A DNA stretch of 33,414 nt. Source: a virus. Shown one piece after another: positions 16,430-18,951 of the stretch. Position 1 is the first letter of the stretch. The number at the start of each line of letters is the position of its first letter. A program made the translations under genes and the position numbers. The stretch is from IMG/VR virus record IMGVR_UViG_3300012931_000017, positions 1 through 33,414 of that record, one strand, 5' to 3'. The notes beneath the pieces were generated by a model. The model ran no database searches. It was given only the letters and a program-made list of their open reading frames with translations, and was not told the DNA's origin.

Positions 16430-17857
16430 TTAATTATTCCAATTCCATAATTCACCGAATGTCAACGTTTTCTTTTCTCCATTCTTATTTATATTTATAC
16501 GAGAAGTTTTTTCAGAACATGCGTATTCCTGATTAAAAAATACAACCCCTCTATCTCTTATTAGATTTTTCTTAAAATTTTCGTCACGATCAGGATGTTC
16601 CCACCAATTTACTTTAACTGGGAAGAATGTATTTTTACCTTTAACTGCATCAATCCAGATATTATAATAATGATTCATACCATTAGGAGTAGAGACTATA
16701 ATAATTTTAGTAGTTTTACCAGAAGAGATAGTAGGCCAAACTGAATCCATAAATTCAGAGGCTATATTAGAAGCTACAAAAGCGAACTCATCTAAAAATA
16801 GACAATTAGAAACTAGTAAACCATTAGCATAAAATCTATTACCATTAGCTACATTAAGTAAATCGTATACATAAGGACTTATGCTTAGATTTTCTGTAGC
16901 GGTAACAGTTTCAAAACCATCTTTAGATTTAATAGAATCACCAACTTTATAAAAATGTCCAAATTGTTTTTCATTATCATTAAAAAACACTTCATGCCTT
17001 CTAGTTAATTCAAGGAATGAATTGTCTGTTGTGATTTTTAGAATATTATTATTTCGTACTTTCTGTTCAGATAGACCATAAAAATTTTGAAATCCATTAG
17101 GAGTTAAGACATCATATTTGGTATTAAGGAATATATTAAACTTCTTTCTTATTTTATCATTAAATAAAAGTCTTAGTTCTTTGATAGTAACATCGGATAC
17201 TTCTTTGGTTAATTTATCTCTAATGGTTACTTTATTATTTTCCGTTAGGCAGTTTATAGAATAACCTCTAATAGCAGAACTAGCTGTTGATGCTGATAAT
17301 ATTCTAGTTCCATTACCTAAAGTTATAGAAGCTTTATTCCACCCACCTTCAACTATACCTGGTTGTAACCAATAAGGTAAATTCTCATAAACCATTTTTA
17401 TTCTATTCATAATTTCAATAGCAGTTTTCTCTTTATTAGCTAAAACAGCTACTGTTTTATGTTCATTAAATATTGCGTAGTGAGTTAAATAAACTGAAGA
17501 AACTGTAGTATTATGTGAGAGTATTCCTGAAGTGTAATATGTATGGTTTTCTGAACCAACCGATAAATCATACATACTTTCTTTATAACCAAGATTCCTT
17601 ACCGATTTAACAGATTCTAATCCAGTCTTGGTTATTATCCTTTGCCCAATTTTCAAATCCTTCGTAAAGACTTCATTGTAAAATTCATCCATTACAATGT
17701 GATCATCGGCACATTGTAATGTATAATTGTCAGTTGATAGTTCCCATACTTCAAATTCTATAGTTTTATTGGTATGAGTTATATCTTCCCATCCAGTATC
17801 AGTCTCTACTTCCCAGTCATCAACTTCAAACGTTTCAATAAACTTATCTGCTATCAT
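16430..17857 (-). CDS. terL: Terminase large subunit fragment 2: IntC-a (aa 1-116), ATPase-domain extein, contiguous mini-intein (aa 203-351), extein with Walker B, then IntN-b (aa 447-475)
   Basis: The extein TTVSSVYLTHYAIFNEHKTVAVLANKEKTAIE...LQPGIVEGGWNKASITLGNG...STASSAIRGYSIN is colinear with T4 gp17 [29 protein letters not shown]...LQPGIVEWNKGSIELDNG...ASSPDAVRGNSFA. The following extein CLFLDEFAFVASN...SSGKTTKIIIVSTPNGMNHYYNIWIDAVKGK matches MIYIDECAFIPNF...SSGRRSKIIITTTPNGLNHFYDIWTAAVEGK. The segments between are intein-like (see intein features). Confidence 0.9.
   Translation of the reverse strand: MIADKFIETFEVDDWEVETDTGWEDITHTNKTIEFEVWELSTDNYTLQCADDHIVMDEFYNEVFTKDLKIGQRIITKTGLESVKSVRNLGYKESMYDLSVGSENHTYYTSGILSHNTTVSSVYLTHYAIFNEHKTVAVLANKEKTAIEIMNRIKMVYENLPYWLQPGIVEGGWNKASITLGNGTRILSASTASSAIRGYSINCLTENNKVTIRDKLTKEVSDVTIKELRLLFNDKIRKKFNIFLNTKYDVLTPNGFQNFYGLSEQKVRNNNILKITTDNSFLELTRRHEVFFNDNEKQFGHFYKVGDSIKSKDGFETVTATENLSISPYVYDLLNVANGNRFYANGLLVSNCLFLDEFAFVASNIASEFMDSVWPTISSGKTTKIIIVSTPNGMNHYYNIWIDAVKGKNTFFPVKVNWWEHPDRDENFKKNLIRDRGVVFFNQEYACSEKTSRININKNGEKKTLTFGELWNWNN
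16433..16519 (-). mobile_element. Split intein b, N-terminal half (IntN-b, 29 aa) ending at the ORF stop
   Basis: ...FNQEYA|CSEKTSRININKNGEKKTLTFGELWNWNN*. The extein FNQEYA plus CKFIGSTNTLIDSEVL (from ORF 12811..13908) aligns without a gap to T4 [22 protein letters not shown]. IntN-b is similar to IntN-a (KIRIRNKNTGKIVELSIGQF vs RININKNGEKKTLTFGELW). The Cys codon aca is at 16517-16519. Confidence 0.75.
16805..17251 (-). mobile_element. Contiguous 149-aa mini-intein (no endonuclease domain) inserted just upstream of the terminase Walker B
   Basis: It interrupts RGYSIN|...|CLFLDEFAF (T4: RGNSFAMIYIDECAF). It starts with Cys (CLTENNKVTIRD...; the tgc codon is at 17249-17251). It contains the T-x-x-H block ELTRRHEVF. 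It ends ...NRFYANGLLVSN followed by Cys+1. The penultimate residue is Ser rather than His. Confidence 0.75.
17510..17857 (-). mobile_element. Split intein a, C-terminal half (IntC-a, 116 aa)
   Basis: MIADKFIETFEVDDWEVETDTGWEDITH...YTLQCADDHIVMDE...MYDLSVGSENHTYYTSGILSHN|T. Block F/G is (D-L-x-V...H-x-Y...GIL-x-HN), followed by Thr+1. That Thr restores the P-loop GK-T. The Asn116 codon is att at 17510-17512, and the Thr codon agt is at 17507-17509. Confidence 0.85.
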
Positions 17858-18788
17858 TTCCTTTCTGATCTCCTAAAAAATCTATACATTTCTTTATTAC
17901 TTCATCTTTATTCTTGTAGTATGAGAGTTCATCAATATGCAAAATATCACAATTTATAGTTTCAACTATTTCAGTATCTCTTATTTCATCTAATGTTTTA
18001 TCACTATTATGCAAATATTGTTTTTTAGTTTCATGAAATTTATGCCAATATGCACCATCAAACTCAATACACTTATTAATAGACTTTATATAAAAATCCA
18101 TCTTTCTTACATGTTCTTTAGTTTTAACTCTAAATTCATAATTACAATTATCGTTTAAATTAATACCTTCTTTATAAGTAGCAAAGAAAATATCATCATT
18201 TGAATATTTACCTTTAATAATTTCATAAATATTCCAAAATAATTCCTGACTAGCTTTTGAATAATTTTGCTTTTTAAAACTCTTACTCCACTTCTCTGTA
18301 ATATCATTTCTTTTTTCTTTAGCTTCTTCTAAAGTGCATCCCTCTCTCTTCATTATCTTATCAACTGAATTAGTAGTTTGTCTTTCTCTAACCTTCTCTC
18401 TAGCCTCTTCTTCAGTGAATCCTTTTTTCTTCCAATATCCAATCTGATTTTCACACGATTCACCTTTAGCAAAAGTAATTTTACAATTCTCTGAAGCTAC
18501 TTTCACTCTATTAGTATTCTTATTGTAGTACAAAACATTACAATTTTTATTAAAACAGAAACTATTAAAATGTCCTCGTTTCTTTGAAAATCCTACATCA
18601 GCTCCACACCATAAACAATGTCCATCAGATTCTCCTTCTTTCAAAAGATATTTCTTGTAATATTCAGGATAACCACCAATATCCTTATGATCCTTATTAA
18701 TGTGACGAGTTAATCCTTTCTTAAAATCCGCAGTATAACCACATTCTTTACACACGAGTTCATCACCAGACATACAAAATCCCTTCAT
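17844..18788 (-). CDS. Freestanding homing endonuclease: N-terminal C2H2 zinc finger(s) plus C-terminal Vsr-like (EDxHD-family-like) nuclease domain
   Basis: It lies between the two halves of split intein a. CKECGYTADFKKGLTRHINKDH is a canonical C-x2-C-x12-H-x4-H finger. The C-terminal ...MDFYIKSINKCIEFDGAYWHKFHETKKQYLHN resembles the Vsr FVxGCFWH core, as in I-Bth0305I-type endonucleases. It overlaps terminase fragment 2 by 14 nt. That fragment's RBS (AGGAG/AAAGGAA) lies inside this gene's 3' end. Confidence 0.7.
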   Translation of the reverse strand: MKGFCMSGDELVCKECGYTADFKKGLTRHINKDHKDIGGYPEYYKKYLLKEGESDGHCLWCGADVGFSKKRGHFNSFCFNKNCNVLYYNKNTNRVKVASENCKITFAKGESCENQIGYWKKKGFTEEEAREKVRERQTTNSVDKIMKREGCTLEEAKEKRNDITEKWSKSFKKQNYSKASQELFWNIYEIIKGKYSNDDIFFATYKEGINLNDNCNYEFRVKTKEHVRKMDFYIKSINKCIEFDGAYWHKFHETKKQYLHNSDKTLDEIRDTEIVETINCDILHIDELSYYKNKDEVIKKCIDFLGDQKGNDSR

Positions 18789-18887
18789 TAAAATTATAAA
18801 TTATAGTTTTATTAATAGTTGTAGAAAATTAAGAATCTTATGAAGACAAATTCAAAATAAGCGGCAATCATTAATCTTTTATAATAT

Positions 18888-18916
18888 ATAATATAATTTT
18901 AAAGTATAATTGTCAA
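18888..18916 (-). promoter_or_regulatory. Near-consensus sigma70-type promoter (TTGACA-17 nt-TATTAT) driving the inter-intein endonuclease gene
   Basis: Minus strand: TTGACA (plus 18911-18916 'tgtcaa'), a 17-nt spacer ATTATACTTTAAAATTA, then TATTAT (plus 18888-18893 'ataata'). It lies ~90 nt upstream of the ATG at 18788, inside the 163-nt gap that separates terminase fragment 1 from the endonuclease gene. Confidence 0.45.
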
Positions 18917-18951
18917 GAACTATTTTCATTATTTATGATTTTAATTATTTT

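Follow-up and report, generated by a model that had tools for sequence, protein, structure and literature searches.

What is a gene of its own doing inside a split intein, between its two halves and in the middle of the codons for the Walker A motif of a phage large terminase? The question is raised by the IMG/VR virus record IMGVR_UViG_3300012931_000017, whose positions 1 to 33,414 make up the window analysed here (the whole stretch of 33,414 nt), and by an open reading frame (ORF) on its minus strand which we refer to as HEG-a (Table 1). An initial annotation, based on the letters of the window, had described this ORF as a free-standing endonuclease gene with a zinc finger and a Vsr-like core, situated within a split intein of the terminase (intein a), between its halves. 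Our analysis indicates that HEG-a very probably is a free-standing endonuclease gene of the EDxHD family represented by I-Bth0305I, equipped with predicted N-terminal zinc-finger modules and inserted after about 35 residues of a mini-intein located in the Walker A motif of the terminase.

Both the ORF itself and its placement within intein a are confirmed by the ORF boundaries and by matches to PHROG, Pfam and PDB entries. The terminase is fractured, fragment 1 consisting of the N-extein and the N-terminal intein half (IntN-a), and fragment 2 of the C-terminal intein half (IntC-a) and the rest of the protein. The upstream ORF (18952..19341) ends with ...PRQAGK|CINYWG...KIK*, and the downstream ORF (16430..17857) starts with MIADKF... 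and reaches ...ILSHN|TTVSS. The large terminase is of the T4 type, and intein a sits between the GK and T codons (GK|T) of its Walker A motif; intein-less relatives read SPRQVGKTTVSA through the boundary between N-extein and intein. The residues needed for splicing are all present: IntN-a (CINYWGKIRIRNKNTGKIVELSIGQFHEMIKPKIK) runs from C to KIK*, and IntC-a reads M...LQCADDH...MYDLSVGSENHTYYTSGILSHN|T, with block B (LQCADDH), block F (MYDLSVGSENHTYYTSG), block G (ILSHN) and Thr at position +1. After fusion of the two halves in silico, the best match in the PDB was VidaL (6vgv, E 1e-5), followed by the Spl DnaX mini-intein (1.4e-4), with further matches to gp41-1 and to CatC, a consensus atypical terminase intein (0.15). 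HEG-a and its two flanking ORFs occupy three different frames, and its 3' end overlaps the IntC-a ORF by 14 nt (17844..17857), while a gap of 163 nt separates it from the upstream ORF, as the initial annotation had noted. The true start of HEG-a is likely the second ATG, which is preceded by a Shine-Dalgarno sequence and also serves as the start (M6) in the public gene call P0001 of an identical protein; no Shine-Dalgarno sequence is found upstream of the first ATG. Between 12 and 21 kb in the window, neither a group I intron nor a member of any other Rfam family was detected.

The IEFDGAYWH core on which the initial annotation had based a kinship to Vsr/EDxHD endonucleases is located at residues 241-249, and the kinship holds at the level of the protein family. 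A collection of 5.8 billion proteins contains 122 homologues of HEG-a, many of which carry DUF559/MTES_1575 domains or the JGI name 'very-short-patch-repair endonuclease'. A profile of 62 homologues matches I-Bth0305I (3r3p_A) with an E-value of 1.1e-4 and places IEFDGtYWH opposite IEVNGVYWA of 3r3p, the crystal form being an H213A mutant. The AlphaFold model of the HEG-a protein is confident throughout (pLDDT 90), and its best Foldseek match is again 3r3p (probability 0.95). The proposed kinship had been made dependent on a PD-(D/E)xK/Vsr-like fold of the C-terminal domain, and a Vsr-like fold is indeed what is predicted. As judged from the alignment, the presumed catalytic residues are almost invariant (E218 and D231 in 61 of 62 sequences each, H249 in all 62, D267 as D or E in 57), and these four map to E170, D196, H213 and D222 of I-Bth0305I by the alignment and the text of PMC3239194. 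E242, conserved in 62 of 62 sequences, is the extra invariant Glu at the position of Vsr Phe62 which was noted by Dassa et al. (PMC2677866). Individual Pfam scans of the 62 aligned homologues matched MTES_1575 in 41, DUF559 in 31, zf-C2H2 in 11 and ROS_MUCR in 9 of them, and NUMOD3 and Vsr in only one each. The size of the family, as given by a complete HMMER search against 1.84 billion representatives, amounts to 755 clusters at E 1e-3, 305 at E 1e-10 and 38 at E 1e-30. The protein features of HEG-a, namely the 122 homologues, the profile match and the fold matches, are clearly beyond chance. A 622-aa homologue (P0241) considered as an in-frame fusion proved to be uninformative, its first 320 aa being unrelated and encoded by DNA of higher G+C content.

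At the N-terminus, the C-x2-C-x12-H-x4-H pattern announced in the initial annotation is found at residues 13-34, which form a predicted C2H2 zinc finger: the model shows a beta-beta-alpha arrangement (strands 11-12 and 19-20, helix 23-33; pLDDT 94-96), and the best matches among the homologues reach E-values of 4.5e-10 for zf-C2H2 and 5.7e-8 for ROS_MUCR. A second module contains four cysteines and may represent a zinc ribbon; these cysteines are retained in every homologue having that segment (26-33 of 62). The N-terminal module of a second endonuclease gene of the window, HEG-c, resembles that of HEG-a (28% identity over 137 aa, E 4e-5). In the papers defining the EDxHD family (PMC2677866, PMC3239194), the binding regions are of the NUMOD/HTH kind and zinc fingers go unmentioned; the zinc-finger architecture is a sub-variant of EDxHD that is common in metagenomes. 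The zinc-finger N-terminal region of HEG-a has a counterpart in 19 of the 28 homologues hosted by terminases and in 0 of the 12 located in other P-loop genes; these counts are phylogenetically non-independent, and the pattern fits a role of the region in target choice.

Several points weigh against the assignment of HEG-a as given above. Taken as a single sequence, HEG-a stays below the curated cut-offs in Pfam and NCBIfam (MTES_1575, E 0.07; TIGR00632 Vsr, 14 bits and E 0.047 at a cut-off of 97.85 bits), and PHROGs and PDB phmmer searches gave no significant match for its nuclease domain; because of these sub-threshold scores, the nuclease assignment rests on the family profiles and the predicted fold. 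Foldseek gives 3r3p an E-value of only 0.078, and the finger matches Pfam zf-H2C2_5 (E 1e-4) with 22.2 bits, under the curated cut-off of 27. In addition, the N-terminus is about 100 aa shorter than in the closest homologues (47% identical), and the cleavage target could be either the extein P-loop DNA or intein DNA.

A search with the joined terminase/intein sequence, made in silico and combined with a locus search, shows that the P-loop site exists in four states among relatives: empty, with a contiguous mini-intein, with a split intein, and with a split intein plus endonuclease gene. The empty state is represented by about 12 protein clusters (P0126 etc.) with 81-83% extein identity and by locus L082, reading SPRQVGKTTVSAVYL; the DNA of L082 at the insertion point is CAGGTGGGCAAA|ACTACGGTTTCG, and L082-type intein-less P-loop DNA runs ...GGCAAA|ACTACGGTTTC.... 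Contiguous mini-inteins homologous to IntN-a plus IntC-a occur at the same GK|C...HN|T site in P0124, P0137 and P0139, which contain a short linker exactly at the position of HEG-a, and P0180 has a longer linker there. The nearest relative of intein a, locus L087 (IntC 76% identical), is split without an endonuclease gene; its intein ORFs are only 40 nt apart, with a Shine-Dalgarno sequence of its own, and a segment of about 1.1 kb that includes the 163-nt gap is present in the window and absent from L087. In the more distant locus L088 (4001..7482) the states are swapped, the P-loop intein a being contiguous and intein b, at the Walker B site, being atypically split around a GIY-YIG-like gene. 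HEG-a is sporadic among close relatives and absent from the L082-type and L087-type alleles, which is a sign of mobility. Of 80 IMG/VR loci with endonuclease homologues, 60 have an upstream ORF, and this ORF ends with a P-loop GK|C followed by a short IntN (median 38.5 aa) in 46 of them, 34-35 of which show the RQxGK of terminases; the 3' end of the endonuclease gene overlaps the downstream ORF in 37 of 45 loci. The other host genes code for gp46/SbcC-like ATPases, UvsW and a DnaB/gp41-type helicase.

The arrangement has counterparts in the 'fractured gene' loci of Dassa et al. 2009 (PMC2677866), in which a free-standing endonuclease accompanies a split intein, half of these endonucleases belonging to a new Vsr-like family, and which include a gp17-like terminase locus from GOS Lake Gatun with the same unusual split point. 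As in the published terminase loci, the split follows block N1 only, with IntN of 25-37 aa there and 35 aa here, and IntC of 122 aa there and 116 aa here. The overlap of the endonuclease 3' end with the IntC ORF (14 bp here) also recurs there, in 15 loci and with 6-69 bp, and an endonuclease-less split allele exists in both cases, represented by gp41-7, which has lost its endonuclease, and by L087. Unlike 15 of 16 published loci, which show a hairpin in the 5'-untranslated region, often together with a TATAAATA late-promoter element, HEG-a has neither of the two, which are common rather than obligatory in the published loci, and is preceded by the 163-nt gap with a sigma-70-like match instead; moreover, the terminase of the window holds two further inteins. 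The atypically split terminase inteins GOS-TerL (37+115 aa) and AceL-TerL (25+104 aa) are established protein-chemistry tools (PMC11766414), and their splice junctions (Ser1/Cys+1 and Cys1/Cys+1, respectively) differ from that of intein a (Cys1/Thr+1); by its Cys+1, intein c of the same terminase may be the closer counterpart of the published terminase intein. As for the enzyme, I-Bth0305I is the dimeric EDxHD prototype and cleaves beside its insertion site with 2-base 5' overhangs (Taylor et al. 2011, PMC3239194). It shares with HEG-a the phage origin, the order of a DNA-binding N-terminus and a C-terminal Vsr-like nuclease domain, the catalytic E, D, H and D residues and the core motif (IEVNGVYWH there), at an identity of about 15-17% over the core. 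It differs in residing in a group I intron of recA and in using NUMOD/HTH binding motifs, compared to the split intein and the C2H2 plus Cys4 modules of HEG-a. Escherichia coli Vsr (1cw0/1vsr) consists of one domain, holds a structural zinc site and acts as a repair nickase, unlike HEG-a, which falls short of the Vsr cut-off, has the extra invariant E242 and carries large N-terminal DNA-binding modules. Hef of T4-related phages is located between genes and is not known to lie within a split intein. Like HEG-a, to which it is likened by its description, it is a free-standing Vsr-like homing endonuclease in a T4-type genome (cited in PMC3239194).

By analogy to these systems, the HEG-a enzyme, probably a dimer like the characterised family members, would introduce a staggered double-strand break into terminase alleles without the endonuclease, i.e. 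into either an intein-less P-loop or an intein allele devoid of the gene. In co-infected cells, repair of the cut allele by recombination would transfer the endonuclease gene to it, along with the intein halves. IntN-a and IntC-a would then associate and trans-splice the two terminase fragments to ...PRQAGK-TTVSS..., and the phage would thus tolerate the break; this step is suggested by the conserved residues and by the characterised atypical split inteins AceL-TerL, GOS-TerL and VidaL. The weakest step is expression, for which the cassette may provide its own sigma-70-like promoter, or, at least as likely, read-through of the late operon may be combined with the Shine-Dalgarno sequence of the gene.

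The initial annotation had also proposed that the endonuclease converted a contiguous intein into a split one by inserting into it. This is essentially the published model applied to a new locus, in which a contiguous intein is invaded by an endonuclease gene that thereby fractures the host gene and introduces control elements (PMC2677866). A contiguous ancestor of intein a is plausible, given the contiguous homologues at the same site with their linkers exactly at the position of HEG-a. The split state of L087 without an endonuclease, however, is compatible with three histories, in which HEG-a brought about the split, disappeared from L087, or came into an intein already split. A history in which the endonuclease was not the splitter, with the endonuclease-less split allele being ancestral in this lineage and HEG-a entering it later, or targeting intein DNA instead of the P-loop, is less likely than not. 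It would account for L087, whose spacer shows no visible deletion scar and no significant similarity to the 3' end of HEG-a (the similarity ranks only second in the window, and outside the Shine-Dalgarno sequence its score is at background level; a two-sequence MAFFT alignment and a lenient global alignment of this spacer were misleading), and it agrees with the strong conservation of the IntN sequence (...IRNKKTGEI...) across different host genes. The contiguous homologues argue against it, as do the endonuclease loss described for the fractured gp41-7 locus and the swapped states of intein a and b in L088, which support repeated endonuclease-driven splitting. It is quite improbable that HEG-a is a decaying or domesticated relic which no longer homes. 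Its short N-terminus, the unusually long non-coding gap before it and the occurrence of an identical protein on only one other contig of the collection would be in line with decay, but the reading frame is uninterrupted, none of the catalytic and near-invariant residues has been lost, the structural model shows no doubtful region, and homologues of 313-345 aa cover 95% of the protein. Nor does the gap show any trace of former coding sequence: an origin of the 163 nt from a decayed longer N-terminus was rejected after a tblastn comparison of 58 homologue N-termini with the gap yielded noise only. Hardly any weight can be given to a Vsr-type repair enzyme or a DUF559/restriction-like nuclease with a host-directed or defence role that lies beside the intein by coincidence. 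The fold and motifs are common to Vsr, DUF559 proteins and the nuclease domains of PvuRts1I/AbaSI, and the JGI name of some homologues points the same way, but the same split-intein P-loop context recurs in 46 of 60 homologous loci, the presence of the gene varies among close relatives, and the score for the Vsr model lies far below its cut-off.

The near-consensus sigma-70 promoter which the initial annotation had placed in the 163-nt gap exists as a pair of hexamers at 17-bp spacing, but it exceeds chance expectation just marginally, and 67 related loci do not share it. There is an even chance that these hexamers merely reflect A+T-rich DNA and that the endonuclease is transcribed solely by read-through from the late terminase and translated from its own Shine-Dalgarno sequence, an alternative that affects the early promoter and no other part of the assignment. 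In its favour, the window contains four matches of at least 11/12 versus 2.9 expected, and none of the 67 related loci has such a match within 200 nt upstream of the endonuclease, while matches of at least 10/12 occur upstream in these loci at 0.75 per kb compared to 0.43 per kb in the background. In the relatives, the endonuclease ORF mostly comes after the IntN ORF at a median distance of 19.5 nt or overlaps it, and a distance of at least 100 nt occurs in only 1 of 46 loci; this suggests that joint transcription with the terminase fragment is the rule in the family. In addition, the nearest TATAAATA motif upstream of the terminase, at 23518, fits a long late operon through the region. On the other side stand the rank of the match as the best in the 7 kb from 14 to 21 kb, its ideal spacing, its orientation on the coding strand, and its position in the one large gap before the gene. 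Shuffling the gap sequence yields such a match with a probability of 0.018. Two of the four window matches fall into the 1.7 kb of intergenic gaps, the other one lying after gp23 (24770..24742). Moreover, the element lies inside the segment of about 1.1 kb that L087 lacks, and the published model expects an invading gene to carry its own control elements (PMC2677866). Early expression of HEG-a independent of the terminase is thus a hypothesis with roughly even odds. A fold of 18755..18890 gave no stable hairpin (z +1.03 versus shuffles), the T4-type late promoter TATAAATA was not found in the 163-nt gap, and a MotA-box middle promoter, which was sought by eye in the gap, had the wrong spacing. 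A perfect hairpin in the block B codons of IntC-a, about 125 nt downstream of the HEG-a stop codon and absent from L087, is terminator-like; it might terminate transcription begun at the putative promoter, or be a product of chance.

Single TATAAATA motifs precede several late genes of the window (9595, 12774, 23518, 26917/26952 and 30409). The coding region of IntN-c contains a T4-type late-promoter motif in tandem, TATAAATATAAATA, which lies about 165 nt upstream of HEG-c, and the intergenic gap that follows gp23 contains a second near-consensus sigma-70-like match, 38 nt ahead of the next called gene.

Table 1. Positions of the terminase, its inteins, the endonuclease genes and associated elements in the window.
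Feature	Position	Strand	Remarks
HEG-a, putative free-standing EDxHD (Vsr-like) homing endonuclease gene	17844..18788	-	314 aa (309 aa from ATG 18773)
Shine-Dalgarno sequence of HEG-a	18781..18785	-	AAGGG, 7 nt before second ATG (18773)
C2H2 (Ros/MucR-like) zinc finger, predicted	18687..18752	-	residues 13-34; C13-x2-C16-x12-H29-x4-H34
Second Cys4 module, putative zinc ribbon	18540..18617	-	C58-x2-C61 ... C78-x4-C83
Vsr-like nuclease domain, predicted	17871..18206	-	approx. residues 195-306; E218, D231, E242, H249, D267, R270, E287
N-extein of large terminase (gp17-type)	19060..19341	-	94 aa, to Walker A ...CPRQAGK; PHROG terminase large subunit, E 2e-15
IntN-a and stop codon	18952..19059	-	35 aa; Cys1 directly after GK; first beta strands
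Non-coding gap	18789..18951	-	163 nt, 85% A+T; upstream ORF stop to HEG-a ORF
Sigma-70-like match, putative	18888..18916	-	TTGACA-17-TATTAT; 11/12 consensus positions; coding strand
IntC-a	17510..17857	-	116 aa; blocks B, F, G, end SHN, +1 Thr; Pfam Intein_splicing, E 1.3e-5
Hairpin in IntC-a block B codons	17690..17721	-	perfect 12 bp, then weak T run; -15.8 kcal/mol, z -2.4
Large terminase gene, entire	12811..19341	-	three ORFs, three inteins
Intein b	17251..16805	-	contiguous, 149 aa; SIN|C...VSN|CLFLDEF
IntN-c	16519..16433	-	29 aa
IntC-c	13908..13567	-	114 aa
Tandem late-promoter motif	16486..16499	-	T4-type
ORFs between intein c halves	13949..16320	-	five ORFs
HEG-c, second endonuclease gene	15205..16320	-	DUF7487 / phrog_3339 homing endonuclease
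2H phosphoesterase gene	14441..15007	-	weak Acb1 anti-CBASS match, E 0.0018
GDSL-like hydrolase gene	19346..20155	-	between small and large terminase genes
Small HNH endonuclease gene	20149..20454	-	between small and large terminase genes
Second sigma-70-like match	24742..24770	-	TTGACA-17-TATATT

The two further inteins of the terminase differ in organization. Intein b is located just before the Walker B motif and is contiguous, and intein c is split, with Cys1/Cys+1 as in AceL-TerL. As judged from the sequence, an active terminase would require two trans-splicing reactions and one cis-splicing reaction. The ORFs between the halves of intein c comprise HEG-c, which shows an HNH-like motif at its C-terminus by eye, the 2H phosphoesterase gene, and ORFs for a Cys-rich protein of 66 aa, a protein of 120 aa that seems hydrophobic by eye, and one of 40 aa. 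The endonuclease and the phosphoesterase have homologues in locus L082, at the corresponding place in intein c, and L082 also harbors two TnpB-like ORFs (190..1527 and 2837..3910; recognized by eye from a C-terminal zinc-ribbon/RuvC signature), beside the terminase gene and inside the split-intein-c region, one of them between IntN-c and the endonuclease gene. In L088, the ORF between the halves of intein b encodes 291 aa with weak GIY-YIG/SegE matches, and the IntC of this intein apparently ends with Gln, not Asn (..YCRQ|CLFLDEY). Locus L083 (3755..6628) encodes a related terminase as a single ORF of 957 aa with an intact P-loop and a large intein at a fourth site, inside a ...VS|TPNG motif.

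All genes of the window are encoded on the minus strand, and its DNA has a G+C content of about 28%. A protein identical to that of HEG-a is also encoded on a 97.8-kb ENA metagenome contig (ERZ27227667, k141_4222033), where the genes are arranged in the order portal, prohead protease, scaffold, gp23, gp13, gp14-like, gp15, small terminase, HNH, GDSL protein, large terminase, sheath and tube. The source of this contig and of the identical protein is an uncultured T4-like phage, whose major capsid protein shows only about 31% identity to that of any cultured phage. In the window, the small HNH endonuclease gene and the GDSL-like hydrolase gene are likewise inserted between the genes for the small and the large terminase, and L087 has the HNH gene at this place and lacks the GDSL gene.

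The locus represents a new example of an arrangement and an enzyme family that have been known since 2009-2011, and it leaves the current understanding unchanged. A more far-reaching interpretation, which we regard as doubtful, would treat HEG-a and the atypically split P-loop intein as one composite mobile element that moves among unrelated genes of P-loop ATPases (terminase, gp46/SbcC-like, UvsW) by swaps of its N-terminal DNA-binding modules, and that here would also form an autonomous early transcription unit with a sigma-70-like promoter and the terminator-like hairpin. If true, such a unit would uncouple the endonuclease from the late expression of the terminase. As it stands, the locus offers a clean and complete natural example of the fractured-gene stage in the life cycle of inteins and homing endonucleases. 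Its atypical split intein of 35 and 116 aa with a Cys1/Thr+1 junction joins the class of AceL-TerL, GOS-TerL and VidaL, which serve as labelling tools, and the putative zinc-finger-guided EDxHD nuclease would add a further natural scaffold for targeted nucleases.

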